This document shows, piece after piece, positions 1 through 39,125 of a stretch of 64,000 nt of DNA. The DNA lies in assembly GCA_013151775.1 (NCBI GenBank), contig JAADHO010000298.1, positions 2,853-66,852 of the forward strand, written 5' to 3'. The DNA is from Deltaproteobacteria bacterium. GTDB lineage: Bacteria > Myxococcota_A > Polyangia > Polyangiales > Houyiibacteriaceae. The stretch's first letter is position 1. Every line of letters starts with the position of its first letter. Made by a program: the position numbers and the translations under genes. The notes below the pieces were generated by a model. The model was not told the origin of the DNA, searched no databases, and saw only the letters and a list, made by a program, of their open reading frames with translations.

Positions 1-1212
1 GTGGTCGTGCGCTGGGCTCCGCGCTGGGTCTTGCAGGCACGCGAGACGGAAGTGGGCGCGGTGCAGCGCTTCTGGCATCGGGTGGACGAGTTGCCCATGA
101 CGCTGCGGCTCTCCCTCGACGCCGACAGGCTGATGAAGGGACGAATCGGCGTTCACCTGGCCACCTGGGGGACCCTCGACCTGACCGTGGACACGGAGGG
201 CGGGATCGCCGCTGGAGACGTAGCCCTGGGGTACGTCGACGCGCGTCTGGGCAAGGCGAAGGTCTGGCTCGGCCGGCGCTTCATCACCTGGGGACCGCCC
301 GGTGGACTGCATCTGGACGGTGCCGGCGCCGACGTGGACATCTCTCACGGCTTCTCGGTCGAGGCGTTCGCGGGGCGGCCCGTGGTCTCTCGCATGCTCA
401 CGAGCACCGGCGCTTCGGGGAACCTCACGCAGCCGACGGGCGCCTACGGAGGGCGCGTGTCCTGGGTTCGAGCCGGCTTTGCCTCGGCGAGCGCCGCCTA
501 CGTGCAGCGCTGGTCCCATGGACTCGAGACGGACCGCGTGGTCGACGTGGACTTCTCCGCAAGGCCCTCGAACTGGGCCGACCTGAACGGCGGCGCCACC
601 TGGGATGTGCGCACGTCGCGCCCGACACAGGCGCAGATCGGAGTGGATCTGGTCGCCCATCGCGCCTTCCGCTTGCTGGTCCTCGGGAGCTACGTCGACC
701 CGCGCGCGCTGCTCCCCGATTGGTCGGTCCTGAAGGCCTTCTCCAGCATGCTCTACACAGAGGCGGCGCTCGGCGGCACCCTGCGTGTCAGCAACGGTGT
801 TCATCTGCGGGTCGAGGGCGCCTACCGGCGCAGCTGGCAACCCGATCGACAGGACGGAGAGACGCTCAACGGCTATCGCATCGACGCCTATGTTCGGGGT
901 GTGCCCTGGGGAGGGCGGCCGGGTTATCGCGTGATGGTTTCACGCCGTGACGATGGCGCCATGGGCTACACCCTGGTGCAGGCTGCGGTCGCCTTCGAGA
1001 CGACTCGAGATCTTCAGCTGGCGGTCGAGCTCTCGGCGGCCTTCGACGACGCGCTGGAACGCGAGGCCTACGTAGGGCGCTTGTCGGGAGAGTATCGCGT
1101 CGCCTCCGCGTGGACCGTCGGAGCGGCGCTGGACGTCTCCCGCACACCCACCGCGGACGCAGAGGTGCGTGGCTTGCTTCGGGCGGTTTATCGCCGGGGA
1201 GTGTCCCAATGA
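1..1212 (+). CDS. putative outer-membrane beta-barrel (porin-like) protein, possibly 5'-truncated by the window edge; first gene of the multiheme cytochrome operon
   Basis: The frame is open from base 1 (GTG) to a stop at 1210-1212. Composition is balanced, unlike the Arg/Pro-rich shadow frames. Many amphipathic strand-like segments are present (YTLVQAAVAFETTRDLQLAVELSAAF, AYVGRLSGEYRVASAWTVGAALDV). The stop overlaps the next start (ATGA at 1209-1212). The barrel/porin role is inferred from sequence pattern and context only. Confidence 0.45.
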   Translation: MVVRWAPRWVLQARETEVGAVQRFWHRVDELPMTLRLSLDADRLMKGRIGVHLATWGTLDLTVDTEGGIAAGDVALGYVDARLGKAKVWLGRRFITWGPPGGLHLDGAGADVDISHGFSVEAFAGRPVVSRMLTSTGASGNLTQPTGAYGGRVSWVRAGFASASAAYVQRWSHGLETDRVVDVDFSARPSNWADLNGGATWDVRTSRPTQAQIGVDLVAHRAFRLLVLGSYVDPRALLPDWSVLKAFSSMLYTEAALGGTLRVSNGVHLRVEGAYRRSWQPDRQDGETLNGYRIDAYVRGVPWGGRPGYRVMVSRRDDGAMGYTLVQAAVAFETTRDLQLAVELSAAFDDALEREAYVGRLSGEYRVASAWTVGAALDVSRTPTADAEVRGLLRAVYRRGVSQ

Positions 1213-2312
1213 TTCGCAGCCTGTTCTCGGAGGTCGCAGACCGCAGCGTCCCGTGGCTCTCGTCGGTGGTGCTGCTCGCAGGCCTGCTCTTCGGAGCGGG
1301 CGCGTGCTCCCATCAGGAGGGCCCGGCGCGCGATCACATCAAGTTCTCCCACGGCTCGCACATGGTCTTGGGCGCCTCGTGTCTCGTCTGCCACGGAGAG
1401 GCGGCCAGCCCCGACGCCGGCACGGGCGCCGTAGGGCGTCCCCTGATGCCCGCGGAGGACACCTGCAAGGGCTGCCACATGGAGGGCGAGCAGGCCGCGT
1501 GCACGTATTGCCACACGGATCCCGCCCACCCGAGCACCTACATGCCTTCCGATCGGGACACGCGCTGGCGCCACTCTACACACCAGGCTCCGCAGCGAGG
1601 TCAGTGCCAGCGCTGTCATCGCAGCGTCGGCTCGGAGGAGACGGTGGCCGGCTACAGGCCCGATGTGCCCGACATGGCCACCTGTCTAGGCTCGTGTCAT
1701 CAGCAGCAGGTGCGCTCCTTCGACTGTGCCTATTGTCATCGGGACCTCAGCCGCTTCCGCATGGACCAGGTGTCTAGCGTCGACCATGGATCGGGCTGGG
1801 TCAGGCGCCATGGGCGCCACGCCAGGCAGGACGCCAACCTGTGCACGCAATGCCACGAGCCCACCTTCTGTAGCGACTGCCATGAGGCGTCCGTGGGCGC
1901 ACCCCTCGAGCTGCGTGAGCCCATGCGTGTGTACCGTGACTTCGTCCATCGGGACGACTTCCTCTCGCGGCATCCCGAGGAGGCGCGCCTCGAGCGCGGC
2001 ATGTGCGCACGCTGCCACGGCGTGAGCTACTGTGACGACTGCCATCGGCAGCGCGGCATCGGTGGATCGGTCGCCCCGGGCAGCCCTCATCCCCCCGGCT
2101 GGCTCGACCCGACCTCCGCCAACGGGCACGCGCGCTCCGCCCGACGGGACATCACTCTCTGCGCCGCCTGTCACGAGTCGGACGCGGACACCCTGTGTGC
2201 GGCTTGCCATCGCGTCGGTGGCCCCGCCGGCATCAACCCACATCCACCTGGCTTCGCGGCCGGGCGAGATCCTCTGGCTCACGCCGTCTGTCGGGTCTGT
2301 CACCTACGATGA
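1209..2312 (+). CDS. dodecaheme c-type cytochrome, probable lipoprotein
   Basis: ATG at 1209 sits in an ATGA overlap with the upstream stop. The N-terminus MIRSLF..VVLLAGLLFGAGAC looks like a signal peptide with a lipobox-like Cys. There are 12 CxxCH motifs (CLVCH, CKGCH, CTYCH, CQRCH, CAYCH, CTQCH, CSDCH, CARCH, CDDCH, CAACH x2, CRVCH) plus one CxxxCH (CLGSCH). Motifs are tightly paired, e.g. CTQCHEPTFCSDCH. Confidence 0.9.
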   Translation: MIRSLFSEVADRSVPWLSSVVLLAGLLFGAGACSHQEGPARDHIKFSHGSHMVLGASCLVCHGEAASPDAGTGAVGRPLMPAEDTCKGCHMEGEQAACTYCHTDPAHPSTYMPSDRDTRWRHSTHQAPQRGQCQRCHRSVGSEETVAGYRPDVPDMATCLGSCHQQQVRSFDCAYCHRDLSRFRMDQVSSVDHGSGWVRRHGRHARQDANLCTQCHEPTFCSDCHEASVGAPLELREPMRVYRDFVHRDDFLSRHPEEARLERGMCARCHGVSYCDDCHRQRGIGGSVAPGSPHPPGWLDPTSANGHARSARRDITLCAACHESDADTLCAACHRVGGPAGINPHPPGFAAGRDPLAHAVCRVCHLR

Positions 2313-3511
2313 CCAAGGTCGGTTTCAGTCTCTTGCTCGCGGTCGCCCTGACTGCGCCGCTCTTGACCCGCCCGGCCCGGGCGGAGGAGACATGCATCCT
2401 CTGCCATCGACAGCTTCGTGAGGCTCGACTGCGTCGGCCCGCGGTCGAGTGGCCGACCAGCATCCACGCACAAGAGGAGGTCTCCTGCGTGCTCTGTCAC
2501 GGCGGCAACGGTGAGGACGAGACGGTCAGCGCTCATGATCCCGACAGTGGTTTCATCGGACGTCTCAGCCCCATGCAGCAGGCGGAGCGCTGCGGCGGCT
2601 GTCACGGATCCACCGAGGGCGATCACGCTCCGGACGAGGCTAGCGATGCCTGGGCGCAGTGGCGGCAGAGCGCCCACGGGCGAGCTGCGGAGGCGGGCTC
2701 CTTCGCGCCGGGCTGTGCTGACTGTCACGGCGCTCACGCGGTTCATGAGGTGACCGATCCGCGGGCGACGGTAAGTCGCGCCAACGTGGTCGAGACCTGC
2801 GCCTATTGCCACGCGGATCCCGGGCTGATGGCGGACACGACGCTGCCCGACGATCAGTACGACCAATACATCGAGAGCGTCCACGGCCGGAAGCTCGCCG
2901 AGGGAGACCCCGACGTGCCCACCTGCGCCGATTGTCACGACGCCCACGGCGCGCGTCACGGCACGGAGGCGGCGGCCACGGGCTGCAAGCATTGCCACGA
3001 AGAGATCGGCGCAGCCTTCGATCGGGGCCGACACCACGAGGTGTTCGCGAACTACGGCTTCGTGGATTGCGTCGAGTGCCACGGCAGTCACGAGGTGGCC
3101 GAGCCCGGCGCCTGGCTGATCGGCGGTGGCGCCCAAGCGGCGTGTCGACGCTGTCACGGGCGCGGTCAGGAGGTCTTCGACAAGGTGCGTAAGCTGGGCG
3201 TGGACGTGAACCGAGCCGAACAGGCGCTCGCTGCGGCGAGTGACGAGAAGCGCCAGGAGCTCGAGGAGACGCGCCGAGGCATGGTGTTGGCGCTGCACGC
3301 GCTCGACATCGACGGCGTGAGCGGCGCAGCGGATCGGATCGTGAGCAGCGTAGGTCCGGTCGACACGACAGACGCACAGGCAGCCCCGTCGAGCCATCAG
3401 CCCGCCCACGCTGGGCGCGCTTTCTGGAGTGCCGTGGTTCTGGGTGGGCTCTTCTTGCTGACGCTCCTGGGGGGCGTGCTCGTGGGGCGCGCGCGCAGGA
3501 GGCGCTCATGA
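2309..3511 (+). CDS. nonaheme c-type cytochrome with N-terminal signal peptide and C-terminal TM anchor
   Basis: ATG at 2309 sits in an ATGA overlap with the upstream stop. The signal peptide is MTKVGFSLLLAVALTAPLLTRPARA. There are 9 CxxCH motifs (CILCH, CVLCH, CGGCH, CADCH x2, CAYCH, CKHCH, CVECH, CRRCH). The C-terminus is a hydrophobic helix followed by a basic tail (AFWSAVVLGGLFLLTLLGGVLVGRARRRRS). Confidence 0.9.
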   Translation: MTKVGFSLLLAVALTAPLLTRPARAEETCILCHRQLREARLRRPAVEWPTSIHAQEEVSCVLCHGGNGEDETVSAHDPDSGFIGRLSPMQQAERCGGCHGSTEGDHAPDEASDAWAQWRQSAHGRAAEAGSFAPGCADCHGAHAVHEVTDPRATVSRANVVETCAYCHADPGLMADTTLPDDQYDQYIESVHGRKLAEGDPDVPTCADCHDAHGARHGTEAAATGCKHCHEEIGAAFDRGRHHEVFANYGFVDCVECHGSHEVAEPGAWLIGGGAQAACRRCHGRGQEVFDKVRKLGVDVNRAEQALAAASDEKRQELEETRRGMVLALHALDIDGVSGAADRIVSSVGPVDTTDAQAAPSSHQPAHAGRAFWSAVVLGGLFLLTLLGGVLVGRARRRRS

Positions 3512-5730
3512 GCCCGCGTCACAGAACGTCCGCGCTGAAGCTCGCAGCTTGGTTCTTCGTCTTGGGCGCCTCGGGTGCGGGCGCGCTCTTTGCAGGGCGT
3601 CTGGCAATTCGCGCCGAGGTTCACCATTCGAACGAGTTCTGCGTCGGTTGTCATTCGGCGGCCCCCGCCCATCTGGGAGACCACTCCGATATCGCCTGTG
3701 CGGAGTGCCACGCGATCCCGCAGGGTCAGGAGACCTGGCTCTGGTTCGCCGAAGTGCGTGGTAGCCAGGCTGCTCCGGAGCACGGTGCGGTCGAGGACGG
3801 CGGCTGCAAGAGCTGCCATCAGAGGGACGCAGACGCGTGGACAGACCTGAGCACCTCGAGCGGACACGCTACCCACGCAGACCTGGTCGCGTGTACGCGT
3901 TGTCACGACGGGTCGCTGCACGGCCAACAGGATCCGGACGAGGCCTGCACCTCCTGTCACGAGGCCCCGAACTCCGAGGAGCCCACTGCGGGCGTGGCCT
4001 GCACGACCTGCCACAACTTCGCCGCGGCGCCGTCATTCATCGCCCTCGGAGATCAAGAACGTCGCCGTCCCGACGCCGCCCCCGGAGACGAGCCCGTGGT
4101 CGACGCGTCCCGGCTTCACGGCACCGTGGAGTGCGGTCGTTGTCACGACCCGCATCGGCCCGATCCGACCGGCGAGGTCGCCGCGGACTGCGAGGGCTGT
4201 CACCGGGTGGACCTGCCGGAGCAGGTGGCGGGCGGACCTTCGGGACACCAGAACTGCCGCGGCTGTCACGACATCCATGGCCCGATGGCGCAGCCCGCCG
4301 TCGAGTGCATCCAATGTCACCGCATGCCCAACGGACGTAGCGGGACGCAATGGGAGATCTCCCCCACACCCGTGCCGGAGGTCGAGCGTGCACGTCTGCG
4401 CGCGTCGATCAGCCACGAGGCGCAATGCCAGCGCTGCCACAAGCCTCACACCTGGGTCGCGGACGCGACGCGTTGCGCGGAGTGCCACGAAGAGAAGGTG
4501 AACTCCATCGCGCAGATGCCGCCTGAGAGTCATGGCAACTGCCTGGGTTGTCATGACCCGCATCGGGCGCCGCCCACGACTAAGATCTGCGCGAACTGCC
4601 ACCAGGACAAGACGCGCGCAGTCCGCGCGGCGCGGCCCGCTCGGCACCGCGATTGCACCAGCTGTCACGATCCTCACCAGCGCAAGCCCGCGGCCAATCG
4701 CGTCTGTGGTTCCTGTCACGCCGCGCCCCACGGGCAGCTTCAGAATCAGCCCGCCCAGCACCGCAACTGCGTCTCGTGCCACAACCCGCACGGGAACCCG
4801 CTGCGCGGAGCTCAGAGCGCGTGTGCTCGATGCCATCGGGAGAAGAGCCAGGCGCTGGCCCGCGCCGGTCGGGCCGTGCCTCGGCAGCATCGCTGCGCCA
4901 ACTGTCACGTCCCGCACCAGTTCGCGCCCGCCACCAACGCCCTGCGGCGCTGCTCTTCCTGTCACGCACAGCCGAGCGCGGCCAGCGCCAATCACAGGGA
5001 CACCTGCACGAACTGCCATACGCCGCACCAGGCGCCCATGGGCAGGGCGGCCAACTGTGCGGGCTGTCATCAGGCTGTGCGTCCCGCGGTCCGCGGGCAT
5101 CAGCAGTGCAACCGCTGCCACCGGCCCCACCGCAAGGCGGAGGCGGCCCTGGGGCAGTGCCGCAGCTGCCACGCCTCCGAGGTGCGCGCGCTCGCGAGTT
5201 GGCCCTCGGGCTCACCCCACCGCGGTCAGTGTGCGCGTTGCCACACGCCCCACAACGAGGGGCGCATCGCGGCCTGCTCTAGCTGCCACCAGGATCACCA
5301 GAACCGCCGCCACATGGGGGTCCACCGCCAGTGCACGGGCTGCCACAAGCCGCACCGACCGCGCCCGGCGAACAGCGATTGGCAGAGCCGCTGCGGAGAC
5401 TGTCATCGGGCGCAGGCCGCCGGAGTCGCGCGCTCGAGTGGCACCCACACACGCTGCAAGAACTGCCATCAGGTGCCCGGGCCGCCCCTGCCGACCTGCG
5501 CAGGCTGCCACGAGAACCAGAGGAGTCGGCTGCTGCACTCCGTGCCTCAGCACGGCACCTGCAGCACCTGCCACGAAGACCACAGCAACGCACCGCCCAC
5601 CCGGCGGAACTGCACCCACTGTCATAGGGATCGTCAGAACCATTTCCCCGACGCCCAGACGTGTCAGAGCTGCCACCCCTTCCGGCCCGGCGCGCCCGTA
5701 CGCATGCGCGGCGGACGAGCCGGGCGCTGA
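3508..5730 (+). CDS. giant 33-heme c-type cytochrome with N-terminal TM helix and NapC/NirT-like first heme motif
   Basis: ATG at 3508 sits in an ATGA overlap with the upstream stop. The N-terminal TM is LKLAAWFFVLGASGAGALFAG, followed by HHSNEFCVGCHS. I counted 33 CxxCH motifs by hand. About ten have the form CxxCH-x-PH (CGRCHDPH, CQRCHKPH, CLGCHDPH, CTSCHDPH, CVSCHNPH, CANCHVPH, CTNCHTPH, CNRCHRPH, CARCHTPH, CTGCHKPH), arranged in roughly 35-40 aa diheme modules. Confidence 0.9.
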   Translation: MSPRHRTSALKLAAWFFVLGASGAGALFAGRLAIRAEVHHSNEFCVGCHSAAPAHLGDHSDIACAECHAIPQGQETWLWFAEVRGSQAAPEHGAVEDGGCKSCHQRDADAWTDLSTSSGHATHADLVACTRCHDGSLHGQQDPDEACTSCHEAPNSEEPTAGVACTTCHNFAAAPSFIALGDQERRRPDAAPGDEPVVDASRLHGTVECGRCHDPHRPDPTGEVAADCEGCHRVDLPEQVAGGPSGHQNCRGCHDIHGPMAQPAVECIQCHRMPNGRSGTQWEISPTPVPEVERARLRASISHEAQCQRCHKPHTWVADATRCAECHEEKVNSIAQMPPESHGNCLGCHDPHRAPPTTKICANCHQDKTRAVRAARPARHRDCTSCHDPHQRKPAANRVCGSCHAAPHGQLQNQPAQHRNCVSCHNPHGNPLRGAQSACARCHREKSQALARAGRAVPRQHRCANCHVPHQFAPATNALRRCSSCHAQPSAASANHRDTCTNCHTPHQAPMGRAANCAGCHQAVRPAVRGHQQCNRCHRPHRKAEAALGQCRSCHASEVRALASWPSGSPHRGQCARCHTPHNEGRIAACSSCHQDHQNRRHMGVHRQCTGCHKPHRPRPANSDWQSRCGDCHRAQAAGVARSSGTHTRCKNCHQVPGPPLPTCAGCHENQRSRLLHSVPQHGTCSTCHEDHSNAPPTRRNCTHCHRDRQNHFPDAQTCQSCHPFRPGAPVRMRGGRAGR

Positions 5731-5737
5731 GGAGGAC

Positions 5738-8017
5738 TCAGGCGGGGAGCTTCGCGGCCCGCAGACTGAGGACGGCGATGCCTCCCTCGGTGCGGATCCC
5801 GACGCGCAGGTGGTCGGCATCGTTGGCGGGCGTCCACAGGGCCTCGCCTCCCTCGCCATCGACGGCGCCTTCAGCCTCCCAGCGGGCGCTGAAGTTCGCG
5901 GACACGCCGCCGACGCGCACACGCACGGACTCGCCCTCGCGCTCGACGATCAGCCGCGGCCGGGGAGGCGCGTAGAGAGCGACGGCGCGGCTGCGCTCGG
6001 CGCCCACGGGGGAGGTGTCGCGCCACTGGTCGATCAGTCGGCGGACGGGCACATCCGGCGTCAAGGCGGCGCCCGCGTCTGAAGGTGCGGGATCCACGAC
6101 CATACCGGCGTCGGCGGGTGGCGGGTCGACGACGCTGGCGTCCATGCTGGCGTCGCTGCCTGCGTCCGTCACGCCTGCGTCGGGCGGCAGAGGATCGCTG
6201 ATGCCGACGTCCATCCCAGCGTCCGCCGGCGCCGGGTCGACCACGTTGACGTCCATGCCGGCGTCCATGGGCGGTGGGTCGACGACGGTGGCGTCCATGC
6301 CCGAGTCGGGTGGAGGCGGGTCGACCGAGGTGGGCCCGTTGCCGCACGCCGTGGCGGAGAGCGCTAGCGTCGCGCTCAAGGCCGCGCTCATGGTCATGCG
6401 CCCCACGCCCGCTGAGTTCTTCTTGGCCTCATCGGCGAGCCTCGGCGGGATCGCACGCGTCGTGGCCTCGACGTCGTCCATCTCTTCGTGCCACTCGGCG
6501 TCCGCGGCTGCGATGCGCATGCCGAGGTCCGCGGTCGCGCGTGCGACGCCGTCGCTGTCATCCACATCGAGCCTCTCGGCGAGCTCGATAGCCTGCTCGA
6601 GGAAGTCCGCTGTCTGCTCGGCGATGGCCCGGGAGAGGCCGCGCGCACGTCGCGTCACGTGGCGTACGCTGGGGTGCTCCGCGCCGAAGAAGTGCTCGAG
6701 CACCTTGGCCAGATAGCCCAAGCCCATGTAGCGGTTGCCCACACCGCCCGGAGCGAAGTTGCGCTCTCGGAAGGCCGCCGCGGAGATGCGAAAGAGCAGC
6801 TCCGAGCGAGGATCTTCGAGCCGATAGTCGTAGCCCAGGTAGCTGCCGCTGAGCGTGCCTCGCGCTTCGAGATCGCGCATCAGCGGCGTGCCATAGTAGG
6901 GCTCGGCGCGACAGAAGTTGAAGGGGTGGTCGAGGTGCTCGCGCACGAAGGCGACGTTCTCGCGCACGTCCTCGAGACGCGTGTCGGGCTCGAAGACCAG
7001 CAGGTTGTAGCAGGTGAAGATGCCCGCCTCGGCGCAGGCCGCGAGGGCGCGTCCCACGCTCTCCTGTTGGGTGCCGCGTCGCAGATGCTTGCCGCCCGCC
7101 TCGGAGGCGTTCTCCACGCCCACGTAGAGGCGGATCACGCCGAGGTCGGCCAAGGCGTGCGCCAACTCCACGGTCAGTGTGTCGGGGCGGCACTTGCCGA
7201 CGATGCCCAGCTCGCCCACGCCTCGTGCGTCGAGCTCGGCGCGGATCGCGCGCATGCGCTCGAGCGTCGCCTCGGGCTTCGGCAAGAGCAGGTTGTCGTC
7301 GTGGAAGCAGAAGATGCTCGGCCCCGCCTGCTTCCACAGCCCCGCGATCTCGTCTGCGATGTTCGCGGGGCTGCGCAGCCGGAAGCTCGCGCCGCCGGTC
7401 TGGGATCGTGCGTCGCGGTAGCCCGTGGTGATGGAGCAGTAGGCGCAGCGACCCCAGCAGCCGCGACCGGCCATGATCGGAATGAAGGGCACGCCGAGGT
7501 GGCGGGCGTGGGCCCGGTAGCGTTTGGGGAAGGGCAGGGCGTCGAGGTCGGTGGCGAGGGGGCGCAGCTCCGTGCGCATGGCGACGCCGTCGTCCGAGAG
7601 CAGAGCGAGACCCGCCACCTCACGCAGATCGCCGCCCGTGTTCAGTGCCTCGAGCAGCGCCGCGAAGCTCGCCTCCCCGTCGTGCAGGATCACGCTGTCC
7701 ACACCGTGGCTACGTTCGAGCACCTCGCGGTAGGCCAAGGACGGGAACTGCCCGCCGCTGCTGATGTGGCCCGTGTAGCCGGCTTCGCGCAGCATGCGCG
7801 CGAGCGAGAGGAAGTCGTGGGTGCGATGTTGAAACTGCATCGAGAGCCCCACTAACTCGGGGGAGTCGGCCGCTATCTGTCGGGCCAAGTCGGGTGCGCG
7901 CGCCCCGCTGTCGAAGGGATGGATGGAGACCTCGTGTCCCGCCCTCTCGGCGATGGCGGCGAGCATCCCCGCCCCCAGGTTCTCTTCCAGATCCGCACAG
8001 ATGAGCGCGATACGCAT
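5738..8017 (-). CDS. B12-binding-domain radical SAM protein continuing in frame into a lipoprotein-like C-terminal module
   Basis: ATG at 8017 is preceded by TAGGAGGTCAGCT (GGAGG Shine-Dalgarno). The N-terminus MRIALICADLEENLGAG..VGLSMQF resembles a B12-binding domain. The radical-SAM cluster motif is GRGCWGRCAYCS (CxxxCxxC). From an internal ATG at 6397 the same frame reads MTMSAALSATLALSATAC, then DPPPxDAGMD repeats, then a beta-rich domain. Confidence 0.8.
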   Translation of the reverse strand: MRIALICADLEENLGAGMLAAIAERAGHEVSIHPFDSGARAPDLARQIAADSPELVGLSMQFQHRTHDFLSLARMLREAGYTGHISSGGQFPSLAYREVLERSHGVDSVILHDGEASFAALLEALNTGGDLREVAGLALLSDDGVAMRTELRPLATDLDALPFPKRYRAHARHLGVPFIPIMAGRGCWGRCAYCSITTGYRDARSQTGGASFRLRSPANIADEIAGLWKQAGPSIFCFHDDNLLLPKPEATLERMRAIRAELDARGVGELGIVGKCRPDTLTVELAHALADLGVIRLYVGVENASEAGGKHLRRGTQQESVGRALAACAEAGIFTCYNLLVFEPDTRLEDVRENVAFVREHLDHPFNFCRAEPYYGTPLMRDLEARGTLSGSYLGYDYRLEDPRSELLFRISAAAFRERNFAPGGVGNRYMGLGYLAKVLEHFFGAEHPSVRHVTRRARGLSRAIAEQTADFLEQAIELAERLDVDDSDGVARATADLGMRIAAADAEWHEEMDDVEATTRAIPPRLADEAKKNSAGVGRMTMSAALSATLALSATACGNGPTSVDPPPPDSGMDATVVDPPPMDAGMDVNVVDPAPADAGMDVGISDPLPPDAGVTDAGSDASMDASVVDPPPADAGMVVDPAPSDAGAALTPDVPVRRLIDQWRDTSPVGAERSRAVALYAPPRPRLIVEREGESVRVRVGGVSANFSARWEAEGAVDGEGGEALWTPANDADHLRVGIRTEGGIAVLSLRAAKLPA
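6071..6325 (-). repeat. imperfect tandem coding repeats (about 30-40 nt units) encoding a (V)DPPPxDAGMD linker
   Basis: The peptide reads VDPPPPDSGMDATVVDPPPMDAGMDVNVVDPAPADAGMDVGISDPLPPDAGVTDAGSDASMDASVVDPPPADAGMVVDPAPSDAG. At DNA level, 'gtcgac(c/g)ac..gcgtccatgcc' units recur. Confidence 0.8.
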
Positions 8018-8146
8018 AGCTGACCTCCTAGTCGATGTGTCAAGCCTCAGCCGAAGGCATGTCGGGGTGTTGATTCTGCGCAATTGACAGATCGAGGCTA
8101 AGGTGCTGGCTCACACCATTCCCGCGCGGAGTGCCAGTCGCTGACG

Positions 8147-10228
8147 TCAGCCCAGAGTGCCGCAGCGGTTGCTGACGCAGGCGGCCGCCGCGTCGCAGCA
8201 GTCGCTGTCCGCTCGGCAGGCTTCGCCTTCTTCGGAGCAGCTCACGCGATCGGGCGGCACGCAGACCGGGCCCGCGCCCTCGTCACGGCAGAAGCCGCTG
8301 CAGCACTCGCCGCTGGTCGCGCATCCACGCGCGTCGGCGCGGCATGGTGCTTCCGTCCACTGGGCCGCCATGTTGTCCGTCGTGCGGTCTTGCTGAGGCA
8401 GCCAATAGGGCGCGAAGCTCGGGTCCGAGCCGGCGGTCGGCGAGTCGCTCACGGCCGCGACCCAGAGCTGCCGGCGACCCGAGCCGGCGGTGCCCGCGCG
8501 GGAGTTGCCGTAGTCGCGCGTGCTGAAGAAGGCGAGCCAGAAGTAGCCACCCTCGTCGAAGGGCGAGAAGGTCGGGTAGTAGCTCTGGGTGGCGCCCGCG
8601 TTGAGGCGCTCGAGCAGGTAGGTGGTGCTGCCATCGCGGCTGACCATCTTCAGGGTGGCGTCCCGGGCGATGGTGCGAGGCGTCGCGCCGGGGCCGCGGT
8701 CTTCACGCGCGCGGCTGTGTTCGCCGTGCTGGAACGCCAGGAAGGCCGAGTCTGGGGACCAGCTCGGGTGGGCCACGGCCAGGCCCGCGCCGGGGAAGAT
8801 CATGCTCGAGGGTCCGAAGGCGTCGGGGCCCGAGACGGGGATCAGGGAGAGGTCTGCCCGGGTGAAGTCCACGGCCCAGCTGCCGTTGGTGCCCGAGGCG
8901 TAGGCGACGGAGCTTCCGTCCGGAGACCAGGTGGGATGGGCCGCACCCGCCGTGGGCAGGCCCGCGCCTCCCGCCGACATGCGCGCGCCCGTGTCGCCGT
9001 CCATCAAGAAGAGCTCGTTGCCATAGCTCGCGACCAGCCGGGTCGTGTCTGGGCTGAAGGTCGCGCCCAGAAACTTCTGCACGCTCGGCGGCACCAAGGT
9101 GGGCGCCGGGTCCACGCTGAGGTCCGCCGTCAGGTCGAAGATCGCGCCATAGTCGCCTCCGTCCCACAGCTCCGCGGCCATCTTGCGCCCGTCGCGGCTG
9201 ATGGTGTGGCAGGCGACGCAGCGTCGTCCGTCGCTCGGTCGCGCAGGCGGCGTGGGCATGAAGTCTTCGCGACCGGTTCCATCGCCTCGGATGCGCTGGA
9301 TGCGGCCCTCGGAGAGATCCCAATAGTAGATGGCGCCGCGGATGGTGGCGTCGGCGAAGCGGAAGCTGCGCGGCGAGCCGGCGATCACCTCACCGCTGCT
9401 GGCCTCGAAGCGATCGACCGTGAGCGTGATGCTCGTCTCGGGTGCGGACTCGGCCAGGGCGCGCCAGGCGCTGGCCGGCACGGCGTAGTGGTCGTCGCCA
9501 TCCCAGGCGAGGTAGGCCGTGATGCGCACCGCGGGTAACACCATGCGCAGGCGGTAGAGATCGCCGCTGGCGCCTCCGTCCCACTGAATGTCGGCCGCCG
9601 CCACGTTGCCCGGAAAGACCGTGCCTTCGAGGGGATAGAGCAGGTCCACGCGTCGGCTGGCGTCGATCACGGGCGCTGGGCTGAAACGGTCTGCCGCGTC
9701 TGCGGGCGCGCCCGGCGCCAGGATGACCGCTTCGATCTCCACGTGCACGGTGGTCGTCGCGGTCATGCCCAGAGCCTCCACCGTGACCTCGACGTCGCCC
9801 GCCACGCTGCCCGCCGCCGTGAACACGCCGCTGGTGCTGTCGACGTCGCCCACCACGCTCGCCGGTGCGGACCAAAACCCCGTCGGGATGTTCTCGGTGC
9901 TGCCGTCGTCGAAGCTGGCCTCGATGTCGAGGTCGACGCTCGCGCTGGCGCCGTCCCGCGCCACCAGGCTGGGCGCGTCGGGCGTGATGGCGATGGAGAC
10001 GAGCGTGCGCCGACCGCCGTCTGGCAATGTGGCGTCGAAGCCGCCGCCGCTGTCGACTCCGGAGTCGCCTGGTGGTCGCGCCACGCAGGCGCCGTCGACG
10101 CAGGTCTCGGAGAGCGCACAGTCCGAGGGGATGCTGCAAGGTCTCGTAGGCGCCGGGTTGCTCGCAGAGCAGGCCCCGAGCAGTAAGGCGGCGAAGACCA
10201 TGGTAGAGTGAATAGACGTGCGCATCAT
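8147..10228 (-). CDS. lipoprotein with Ig-like (Big_2-like) region, TolB/PD40-type beta-propeller repeats, one CxxCH motif and a Cys-rich C-terminal module
   Basis: The start is taken at MMRTSIHSTMVFAALLLGAC (lipobox LLGAC; ATG at 10228). PD40-like repeats include HPTWSPDGSSVAYAS and HPSWSPDSAFLAFQ. A single heme-type motif is present (RRCVACHTISRDG). The C-terminus is knottin-like (CATSGECCSGFCRDEGAGPVCVPP, CRADSDCCDAAAACVSNRC). Confidence 0.7.
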   Translation of the reverse strand: MMRTSIHSTMVFAALLLGACSASNPAPTRPCSIPSDCALSETCVDGACVARPPGDSGVDSGGGFDATLPDGGRRTLVSIAITPDAPSLVARDGASASVDLDIEASFDDGSTENIPTGFWSAPASVVGDVDSTSGVFTAAGSVAGDVEVTVEALGMTATTTVHVEIEAVILAPGAPADAADRFSPAPVIDASRRVDLLYPLEGTVFPGNVAAADIQWDGGASGDLYRLRMVLPAVRITAYLAWDGDDHYAVPASAWRALAESAPETSITLTVDRFEASSGEVIAGSPRSFRFADATIRGAIYYWDLSEGRIQRIRGDGTGREDFMPTPPARPSDGRRCVACHTISRDGRKMAAELWDGGDYGAIFDLTADLSVDPAPTLVPPSVQKFLGATFSPDTTRLVASYGNELFLMDGDTGARMSAGGAGLPTAGAAHPTWSPDGSSVAYASGTNGSWAVDFTRADLSLIPVSGPDAFGPSSMIFPGAGLAVAHPSWSPDSAFLAFQHGEHSRAREDRGPGATPRTIARDATLKMVSRDGSTTYLLERLNAGATQSYYPTFSPFDEGGYFWLAFFSTRDYGNSRAGTAGSGRRQLWVAAVSDSPTAGSDPSFAPYWLPQQDRTTDNMAAQWTEAPCRADARGCATSGECCSGFCRDEGAGPVCVPPDRVSCSEEGEACRADSDCCDAAAACVSNRCGTLG

Positions 10229-10338
10229 CGCAGCAAGGTAGCAGCGTCTGCCGGCAATCCCCAGGTGCATCCGCGCCCCGGCCAGGCTTGCGCGCACGAG
10301 GTCGTGCACATGGCTCCGGTCGAACTCGGCGGGTCTGG

Positions 10339-12866: not shown

Positions 12867-13244
12867 TCAGTCGCAGCGCCCGCCGTCGAAGGCCGTGACC
12901 TGCGCTCGCAGGGACTCTTGGTGCGCGAGCCAGGCGTCTCGAATCGAGCTCGGGACCCGGTGGTCCTCCAGAGTCTGGCGCAGGATCGTCAGCCGTCGGG
13001 CGAACTGACCGCCCATGATGCGGTGTCGGGCGTGGGCGTCGCGGATCGAGCGCCCGGCGTATTCGATCTCGGCGCCCAGGAACACGGCCGCGTGTTGATA
13101 CTCGAAGCGTTTCGTGCGCTCACGGTTGGCGCGAGCGAAGAAGAAGCCGATCATCGGATCGTCGAAGCAACGGTCCACGAAGTCGTCTACGAGGGCGCGC
13201 AAGGGCGCTTCGCCTCCCAGCTCGTCGAAGCGCGTCATGACCAC
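12867..13244 (-). CDS. truncated hemoglobin (group I-like globin)
   Basis: The pattern FDELGGEAPLRALVDDFVDRCFDDPMIGFFF...FLGAEIEYAGRSIRDAHARHRI matches the trHb layout (GG motif, FY/FV..D..L..F, proximal His region). The start is either GTG 13244 or ATG 13238. Confidence 0.7.
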   Translation of the reverse strand: MVMTRFDELGGEAPLRALVDDFVDRCFDDPMIGFFFARANRERTKRFEYQHAAVFLGAEIEYAGRSIRDAHARHRIMGGQFARRLTILRQTLEDHRVPSSIRDAWLAHQESLRAQVTAFDGGRCD

Positions 13245-38531: not shown

Positions 38532-39125
38532 TCAGCCAGAACCGCCCCGCTTGAGCTCGGTCAGCACCAACTTGGCGATGGCCTTCAGCGTATCGAAGAC
38601 CCCGAGCCCCGTGAGCGCGACGGCCTCGAAGTCAGGCACGCCACCCGGATTCAAGAGCTGGCGCAGCTCCTCCACGGGTGCGATGGCGGGCATGTCGCGC
38701 TTGTTGTACTGCACGACGTAGGGGAGCTTATCCAGGCTGTAGCCCTGCTCCGCGAGGTTCGTGCGCAGGTTCTCGATGGACTCGATGTTGGCTTCCGTGC
38801 GGGCGATCTGGGAGTCCGCCACGAAGACCACGCCGTCGACCCCCTTGAGGATCAGCTTGCGGCTGGCGTCGTAGAAGACCTGCCCGGGCACGGTGTAGAG
38901 ATGGAAGCGGGTCTTGAAGCCACGGATCTCACCCAAGGCGAGGGGCAGAAAATCGAAGAAGAGGGTGCGCTCGGTCTCGGTCGCGAGGCTGATCATCTTG
39001 CCCTTCGCGTCCGGGTTCGTCTTGTTGTAGATGAACTGCAGGTTCGTGGTCTTGCCGCAGAGCCCCGGCCCATAGAACACGATCTTGCAGTTGATCTCGC
39101 GCGAGAGATAGTTGATGAACGACAT
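38532..39125 (-). CDS. mglA: gliding-motility Ras-like GTPase MglA
   Basis: [33 protein letters not shown].. carries the P-loop [18 protein letters not shown] and VQYNKRD are present. Near full-length resemblance to M. xanthus MglA. It sits directly downstream of mglB. Confidence 0.95.

Follow-up and report, generated by a model that had tools for sequence, protein, structure and literature searches.

A candidate porin–cytochrome-type trans-envelope electron conduit with a 33-heme cytochrome in an uncultured member of the Polyangiales

Organization of the Locus

The window analysed here is a stretch of 64,000 nucleotides (positions 2,853 to 66,852 of contig JAADHO010000298.1, assembly GCA_013151775.1) from an uncultured bacterium of the Polyangiales (Myxococcota). 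Its first 5,730 positions hold four consecutive plus-strand genes, the open reading frames (ORFs) ORF1 to ORF4, which encode a predicted outer-membrane beta-barrel followed by three multiheme cytochromes (Table 1), and which are considered here as a candidate route for electrons across the cell envelope. A first-pass annotation, made from the nucleotide letters and a list of reading frames, had described these genes as an operon coupled by ATGA stop/start overlaps at 1209, 2309 and 3508. The ORF list and direct translation reproduce these exact positions, and the four overlapping genes stand. The operon is not complete as it appears in the window, since related loci show the four genes as the tail of a longer conserved cluster, of which ORF1–ORF4 are the distal part.

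The CxxCH heme-binding motif occurs 12 times in ORF2, 9 times in ORF3 and 33 times in ORF4, which agrees with the 54 motifs counted previously and is far above the means for residue-shuffled versions of the same proteins (0.14, 0.05 and 0.58, respectively). All six frames of the window contain 56 such motifs, 54 of them inside ORF2–ORF4. Every cysteine of the three proteins can be assigned to a heme motif or to a lipobox: the 66 cysteines of ORF4 are all in its 33 motifs, the 18 of ORF3 are all in its nine, and the 27 of ORF2 divide into 24 in CxxCH, two in a CX3CH motif (residues 159–164) and one in the lipobox. The three proteins together probably carry about 55 heme sites. Neither CxxCK nor any other catalytic heme motif was found in the cytochromes of the window.

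Table 1. Coordinates of the cluster in the window and, in the numbering of each locus, of the genes inserted in three related loci (L004–L006).
Feature	Positions	Strand	Description
ORF1	1..1212	+	5' end cut by the window; last 403 codons of the 440-aa (amino acid) barrel protein P0001
ORF2	1209..2312	+	367-aa predicted lipoprotein cytochrome; 12 CxxCH and a conserved CX3CH
ORF3	2309..3511	+	400-aa 9-heme cytochrome; signal peptide, helical linker, C-terminal transmembrane anchor
ORF4	3508..5730	+	740-aa 33-heme cytochrome; single N-terminal helix
ORF4 N-terminal module (residues 1–90)	3508..3777	+	Transmembrane helix, hemes 1–2 and next helix; NapC/NirT/NrfH-like
ATGA stop/start overlap ORF1/ORF2	1209..1212	+	Shine-Dalgarno-like GGGAG at 1197–1201
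ATGA stop/start overlap ORF2/ORF3	2309..2312	+	
ATGA stop/start overlap ORF3/ORF4	3508..3511	+	Shine-Dalgarno-like AGGAGG at 3497–3502
Rieske/cytochrome b insertion, L004	12375–13870		
Rieske/cytochrome b insertion, L005	12412–13886		
Rieske/cytochrome b insertion, L006	12316–13787		

A Barrel Outside the Curated Families

A protein search recovered the full-length product of ORF1, P0001 (440 aa, 100% identity across the part present in the window), which is annotated as hypothetical protein GXP55_17600 of a "Deltaproteobacteria bacterium" metagenome-assembled genome (MAG) on a 66,942-bp contig. Since this full-length protein begins with a normal signal peptide, only 37 codons of ORF1 are missing from the window. 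An AlphaFold2 model of P0001, computed from a 96-sequence alignment, replaced an earlier five-sequence model with a predicted local distance difference test score (pLDDT) of 66. The new model (pLDDT 91.2, predicted template modeling score 0.82) is all-beta, with 22 antiparallel strands in hairpin order and no plug domain. The most conserved motif (P271, S279, F284) is located in a short-helix loop joining strands 13 and 14. When compared with the PDB by Foldseek, the model retrieves only outer-membrane barrels, namely OprD/Occ porins, MOMP, the FimD/PapC ushers and the 22-strand barrel of PfeA, with TM-scores of 0.4–0.55 that are generic for large barrels. ORF1 is thus modeled as a secreted outer-membrane beta-barrel of 22 strands. 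The strand-rich, barrel-like character suspected in the truncated frame is borne out once the 5' part is restored, and nothing in the model or among its structural neighbors points to a soluble or non-barrel protein.

No Pfam or NCBIfam model matches ORF1, and ten distant relatives of the barrel likewise lack a Pfam domain, so that this barrel is not recognizable by the curated domain libraries. MtrB is absent from the top 50 Foldseek matches as well as from a profile search of the PDB. An exhaustive profile search yielded 384 barrel relatives, 21 of them close, and one distant member belongs to a Geobacteraceae MAG.

Two side observations were made in this family. Its profile (A2) gives weak sequence matches to LptD, whose barrel encloses a lipoprotein plug (E 3e-4 to 7e-3, over about 60–100 residues), and one distant member has a faint Pfam LptD match. 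P0003, an orthologue of 70% identity, carries a low-complexity (ASDAT)n insert after its signal peptide, at residues ~20–80.

The Multiheme Partner of the Barrel

The signal peptide of ORF2 ends in a conserved lipobox cysteine, which together with its 12 motifs confirms the earlier description of a 12-CxxCH lipoprotein. A further heme site is likely: the CX3CH motif is a canonical CxxCH in distant homologues, which total 13 motifs, so that 13 is also the probable number of hemes in ORF2. With the family profile of ORF2, the Geobacter dodecaheme cytochrome GSU1996 (3ov0), a chain of c7-type units, is matched at an E-value of 1e-20 over two such units, and there are further matches to ActA of alternative complex III and to PpcA. 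GSU1996 and ORF2 are close in size (318 versus 367 aa) and in heme load. They differ in their setting, as GSU1996 is a soluble periplasmic protein not linked to a barrel gene, whereas ORF2 is a predicted lipoprotein whose gene always lies beside a barrel gene. More than 280 homologues of ORF2 were found, and the few named ones come from Polyangiales, Sandaracinaceae, "Myxococcales" or "Deltaproteobacteria" MAGs.

The pairing with the barrel is conserved across loci. Seven close loci (L001–L007) were compared, two from sequencing-run assemblies (L001, L002), four from Polyangiales or "Deltaproteobacteria" MAGs (L003–L006) and one from a Sandaracinaceae MAG (L007); in all seven the gene directly 3' of the barrel gene encodes a 12-CxxCH cytochrome of about 350 aa. 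The pair is kept in 11 loci when four distant ones (L009, L010, L011, L013) are included, in which the barrels are only 22–25% identical and the cytochromes share 29–38% identity with ORF2. The composition of these distant modules varies. L009 has the barrel and a 12-heme cytochrome without lipobox cysteine, L010 has a small cytochrome, the barrel and a 13-heme cytochrome in this order, and L011 combines the barrel with a 14-heme cytochrome.

The first-pass annotation had likened ORF2 to OmcB, a terminal cytochrome at the cell surface. This role is less likely, because in distant relatives the barrel and ORF2 genes make up a self-sufficient module of two genes, and the L009 partner lacks the lipobox cysteine. 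By analogy with MtrA and with the 12-heme cytochrome of the Anaeromyxobacter porin–cytochrome (Pcc) pair, ORF2 is more likely the conserved, barrel-threading partner of ORF1.

Two Predicted Membrane-Anchored Multiheme Cytochromes

Hydropathy agrees with the topologies proposed earlier for the two remaining cytochromes. ORF3 carries a signal peptide that is cleavable (ARA/EE) and, after a helical linker, a hydrophobic helix at the C-terminus (residues 369–395), with RARRRR following it. A signal peptide combined with a C-terminal anchor is the topology of cytochrome c1. In three of the close loci (L004, L005 and L006), genes for a Rieske protein and a cytochrome b lie between the 13-heme and 9-heme genes, and the ORF3 orthologue directly follows, which reproduces the classical order of Rieske protein, cytochrome b and c-type subunit. 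The insertion is absent from the window and from L001, L002 and L007. The cluster thus exists in two variants, and the window represents the one without Rieske and cytochrome b genes: there ORF2 abuts ORF3, and it is the topology of ORF3, not its gene order, that fits the c1 position. In the three relatives, a Rieske/cytochrome b complex encoded in the operon would have the ORF3 orthologue as its c-type subunit.

Profile searches say little more about ORF3. It gives a marginal and partial match to PF22113, the domain II/IV family of MtrC/OmcA (30.6 bits for a cut-off of 30, profile positions 120–175), weak NrfB-like matches in Pfam and NCBIfam, and no informative relative in PDB sequence searches. 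More generally, the Pfam and NCBIfam families matched by the cytochromes of the window are generic multiheme ones, and ORF4 matches only c7/c3-type repeats above threshold in Pfam.

ORF4 has one hydrophobic helix (residues 12–34), and its first CxxCH begins at residue 45, an arrangement kept in seven orthologues. With one motif every 22.4 residues, its heme density is high, and bis-histidine ligation is possible throughout, since 40 histidines lie outside the motifs and 33 are needed. The number of sites is itself conserved: it is 33 in four of the five orthologues counted (one CX3CH included) and 29 in L001.

At its N-terminus, ORF4 is similar to NrfH. As a single sequence, this part matches Desulfovibrio vulgaris NrfH (2j7a_C) over residues 17–84 with an E-value of 0.0012, and a profile of seven ORF4-type N-termini (A3) improves this to 2.1e-7 over residues 17–88. 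Included in the match are the membrane-spanning helix, the first two hemes and the helix after them, and the likeness lies in this succession, heme 1 coming at once after the membrane helix. The match gives substance to the quinol-oxidase-like inner-membrane module that had been suspected in the same operon. It is a resemblance to the family rather than membership in it. The quinol dehydrogenases of the NrfH/NapC/NirT/CymA type are tetraheme proteins of ~160–220 aa, whereas ORF4 has 33 hemes in 740 aa. PF03264 matches five of the seven orthologues (best E 1.7e-4), all of them under its gathering score of 24.1 bits, and the CxxCHxM motif of heme 1 in NrfH is not conserved in the ORF4 family.

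The Cluster in Related Genomes

The close loci share a conserved gene order that extends well upstream of the barrel. It starts with an MtrC/OmcA-like 10-heme lipoprotein (~750–1000 aa), a 3-heme lipoprotein, a 4Fe–4S NrfC-like protein with a twin-arginine translocation signal and an NrfD-like membrane protein. It continues with a ~205–225-aa lipoprotein of no known family, a ~500-aa 10-heme lipoprotein, the barrel, and the 12/13-heme, 9-heme and 32/33-heme cytochromes. Placement varies to some extent, NrfD being downstream in L002 and the MtrC-like gene following the 33-heme gene in L007. The MtrC/OmcA-like decaheme is clearly seen in L005 (PF22113, 134 bits, E 5e-39), and the same domain is found in L007 and L013; the upstream cytochrome of the relatives carries the Geobacter CxxxxCH...CxxCH domain PF09698. 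If present in the genome studied here, the upstream genes would be in the at most 2.9 kb of contig that precede the window, or on another contig.

The compact relative L013, on a 365-kb contig, bears on the inner-membrane end of the system. Its operon encodes an MtrC-like 10-heme lipoprotein, a 10-heme lipoprotein with the CxxxxCH...CxxCH domain, the barrel and a 13-heme lipoprotein, and ends with a canonical 207-aa NapC/NirT gene (PF03264 match), a small membrane protein and a monoheme cytochrome c. The NapC/NirT gene occupies the place taken by ORF3 and ORF4 in the window, so that a canonical member of the NrfH family stands at the equivalent operon position. L013 is a full inner-membrane-to-surface path in one operon, and independent support for the inner-membrane end.

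Two further features were noted in these relatives. Predicted surface lipoprotein multiheme cytochromes start with collagen-like G-x-y runs in L013 (4997–7537), L010 (8412–10487, minus strand) and L007 (17940–19943), for example GPRGPAGANGDAGSRGEAGATGPMG, which suggests a trimeric stalk keeping the heme domain away from the cell. In L004 (18173–21166, minus strand) and L005 (18155–21267, minus strand), the strand opposite to the cluster codes, about 1 kb past the 33-heme gene, for a molybdopterin oxidoreductase and a 4Fe–4S protein, a pair with no counterpart in the window.

Comparison with Described Conduits

In the Pcc systems described by Shi et al. (2014, PMC4245776), barrels of 18–22 predicted strands are associated with periplasmic cytochromes of 5–14 hemes. 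The ORF1 model, with its 22 strands, lies within this range, as does ORF2 with 12–13 sites and a start codon overlapping the ORF1 stop. Further shared traits are the small barrel next to a gene for a cytochrome of ~350 aa and 12–14 hemes, and the co-evolution of barrel and cytochrome while the surface cytochromes vary. As for the outer-membrane lipoprotein cytochrome of Pcc systems, the lipobox cysteine of ORF2 is conserved, and the 10-heme and MtrC-like lipoproteins are found in relatives and not in the window. Compared by description, the two-gene cluster of Anaeromyxobacter comes closest among known analogues in size, heme number and phylum; it is made up of a porin and the 12-heme periplasmic cytochrome Adeh_3392, which is more abundant under Mn(IV)-reducing than under Fe(III)-citrate conditions (PMC4245776). 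The differences are that the barrel partner ORF2 is a predicted lipoprotein and that the cluster adds inner-membrane-anchored 9-heme and 33-heme proteins, to which the relatives further add NrfC/NrfD-like, Rieske/cytochrome b and MtrC-like genes.

A comparable three-part logic of lipoprotein cytochrome, ~21–22-strand barrel and dodecaheme-class cytochrome is found in ExtEFG of Geobacter sulfurreducens, where a pentaheme lipoprotein and a periplasmic dodecaheme accompany a barrel for which 21 transmembrane domains are predicted (Otero et al., 2018, PMC6148476). In Ext clusters the periplasmic parts are conserved and the surface parts swapped (PMC6148476), and the Polyangiales-type cluster likewise conserves periplasmic and exchanges surface parts. 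Other links to Geobacter are the PF09698 domain of the relatives' upstream cytochrome and the distant barrel from a Geobacteraceae MAG. Gene order and heme numbers differ. To our knowledge, a quinol-dehydrogenase-like gene has not been reported in the operon of any Ext cluster.

With MtrCAB and CymA of Shewanella, the cluster and its relatives share the succession of a quinol dehydrogenase, periplasmic hemes, a cytochrome in a barrel and a surface decaheme, and the MtrC/MtrF domains II/IV are clearly present in the relatives' cluster-mates. MtrB has 26 strands in its solved structure (28 predicted) and ~650–700 aa, whereas ORF1 has 22 modeled strands in 440 aa. With the DmsE/MtrA decaheme model TIGR03508, ORF3 scores 57.2 bits and ORF4 28.1 bits, and no protein reaches the cut-off of 192 bits. 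Membership in the Mtr family was rejected because both barrel size and decaheme scores fail. Of the Pcc/Mtr resemblance put forward by the first-pass annotation, a conduit of the porin–cytochrome kind is what remains supported. As to CymA, the CymA-like module of ORF4 is fused to ~29 extra hemes and would not rely on soluble shuttles. Zhong and Shi (PMC6295460) list three families of quinol oxidases/quinone reductases in bacterial extracellular electron transfer, namely CymA, CbcL/MtrH/MtoC (3–23 heme motifs) and ImcH (6–10). With 33 hemes and an NrfH-like foot, ORF4 falls outside the heme ranges that are listed there for the CbcL/MtrH/MtoC family and for ImcH.

Proposed Electron Path and Alternatives

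Taken together, ORF1–ORF4 are probably the distal part of a porin–cytochrome-type trans-envelope conduit for extracellular electron transfer in an uncultured member of the Polyangiales. ORF4 would be anchored in the inner membrane by its NrfH-like N-terminal helix, where the profile similarity suggests that it accepts electrons from quinol, and its ~29 further bis-histidine hemes may form a chain crossing most of the periplasm. The hemes of MtrA and GSU1996 are spaced by 0.8–1.0 nm each, and at this spacing the 33 hemes of ORF4 could span 25–30 nm. ORF3, with nine hemes and an anchor in the same membrane, may either be a second, parallel point of entry or act together with ORF4. In relatives, quinol electrons may also exit through the NrfC/NrfD-like or Rieske/cytochrome b modules, ORF3-type proteins serving in the latter as the c-type subunit. 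At the outer membrane, ORF2 is pictured as a lipid-anchored c7-polymer of ~13 hemes that threads the plug-less ORF1 as MtrA threads MtrB. It would hand electrons to surface lipoprotein cytochromes, in relatives the 10-heme protein encoded just 5' of the barrel and the MtrC/OmcA-like decaheme. The favored direction of flow is outward, to Fe(III)/Mn(IV) minerals or to partner cells.

A stronger version, doubtful at present, is that ORF4 unites a quinol dehydrogenase and a periplasm-spanning wire in one chain, with its 33 sites dictated by periplasmic width. In that case no soluble shuttles would link the inner membrane to ORF1/ORF2, the two being hard-wired, and the sister variant with ORF3 as c1 would couple a Q-cycle to extracellular electron transfer.

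Several points weigh against the conduit as a whole. The tblastn searches of the 64-kb window found no surface cytochrome, no NrfC/NrfD or other upstream component, and no Rieske or cytochrome b gene. The resemblance of ORF4 in the window to PF03264 is sub-threshold (18.0 bits, E 0.0026) and concerns ~70 residues. The threading of ORF2 through ORF1 is proposed by analogy only, and ORF2, as a predicted lipoprotein, could instead be surface-exposed like OmcB. The likeness to Pcc and Ext is drawn at the level of described features, and all members of the family are known only from metagenome sequences.

The same hardware might work in reverse and take up electrons from Fe(II), minerals or a syntrophic partner for the quinone pool or a terminal oxidase, as MtoAB/PioAB do. 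The direction of flow is not readable from sequence alone, and Rieske/cytochrome b complexes, whose genes are present in L004–L006, also serve uphill electron flow in iron oxidizers. Barrel–cytochrome modules of two genes without a surface cytochrome, such as L009, recall the Mto/Pio systems of Fe(II) oxidizers (PMC4245776), and CymA-type proteins occur in reducers and oxidizers alike (PMC6295460). Uptake nevertheless appears unlikely, given that relatives carry MtrC/OmcA-like surface decahemes typical of mineral reducers, that all hemes are apparently bis-histidine ligated and hence usually of low potential, and that Cyc2, cupredoxin and carbon-fixation genes were not seen near the loci inspected.

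Explanations confined to the periplasm fare worse. The ~55 hemes in three proteins, two of them anchored in the inner membrane, could serve as an electron store or relay for periplasmic respiration, with the barrel acting as a porin or as a translocon that exports lipoprotein cytochromes. The FimD/PapC usher pores among the top Foldseek matches and the weak LptD match (E 3e-4), LptD being a lipoprotein-housing barrel, could be read in this way, but the Foldseek TM-scores are in the range generic for large barrels, and the cluster has neither a catalytic heme motif nor a reductase gene. What makes a store or translocon improbable is that barrel and 13-heme genes remain strictly paired at barrel identities as low as 22%, and that the modeled 22-strand barrel has an empty lumen, which would be an open hole unless a partner fills it. 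Least probable of all, to the point of being rejected, is a chain of the NrfH/NrfB or Hao type dedicated to supplying electrons to a periplasmic reductase of nitrite, hydroxylamine or sulfite. The NrfH-like ORF4 N-terminus, the weak NrfB-like matches of ORF3 and the NrfC/NrfD-like genes of relatives would fit such a chain, in which an outer-membrane barrel and MtrC-like proteins would have no role. Its catalytic partner is lacking, as no gene for NrfA (with its CxxCK), Hao, MccA or a sulfite reductase was found in the window or in any locus inspected. The homologous loci inspected are thus not embedded in reductase clusters of this kind, a setting that the first-pass annotation had named as a sign of a periplasmic respiratory role.

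Neighboring Genes and Base Composition

The genes 3' of position 5730 are convergent and unrelated to the cluster, and encode a B12/radical-SAM protein, a PD40 protein, an amidophosphoribosyltransferase, a globin and PrsW. The first of them (5738–8083, minus strand) is a 781-aa B12-binding radical-SAM ORF that continues in frame, after residue ~560, into a lipoprotein-like signal (MTMSAALSATLALSATAC) and then proline-rich repeats of the "VVDPPPxDAGMD" type; it may be two genes read as one, or an odd fusion. The PD40 beta-propeller protein (8147–10309, minus strand) has a cysteine-rich C-terminus, and the globin gene (12867–13244, minus strand) is small and of bacterial type. Further along, the N-terminus of the ORF at 38532–39125 (minus strand) is what we take to be MglA-like, and Pfam gave no match for it.

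Third-position GC is 0.80–0.82 in ORF1–ORF4, compared with 0.84–0.93 in the other confidently coding ORFs of the window, which had been chosen by a cut-off above 0.84 on this same measure. A codon constraint, or acquisition of the cluster at a later time, may account for the lower values.

Biological Significance

Porin–cytochrome conduits are the Gram-negative route to respire minerals and electrodes and to exchange electrons with partner cells. Within the Myxococcota, extracellular electron transfer has been tied to Anaeromyxobacter, and the Polyangiales are known mainly as aerobic predators and polymer degraders. In the literature searched, no description of such a cluster in Polyangiales or Sandaracinaceae was found. 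The conduit principle is already established; what is unusual here is the uncurated barrel family, the NrfH-like 33-heme fusion, the 9-heme protein in c1 position and the host lineage. The locus defines a barrel and 13-heme cytochrome pair for which no curated barrel model exists, with 384 relatives of the barrel and more than 280 of the cytochrome.

At the level of mechanism, the 33-heme protein with its NrfH-like anchor and the 9-heme protein in c1 position suggest that electrons might cross the periplasm along tethered wires rather than by diffusing cytochromes. If ORF4 is indeed both anchor and wire and ORF3 takes the place of c1, the Polyangiales would possess a fully tethered, envelope-spanning respiratory chain of a kind not described previously. 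At the level of the organisms, the cluster predicts a capacity for extracellular electron transfer in uncultured Polyangiales/Sandaracinaceae-like myxobacteria.

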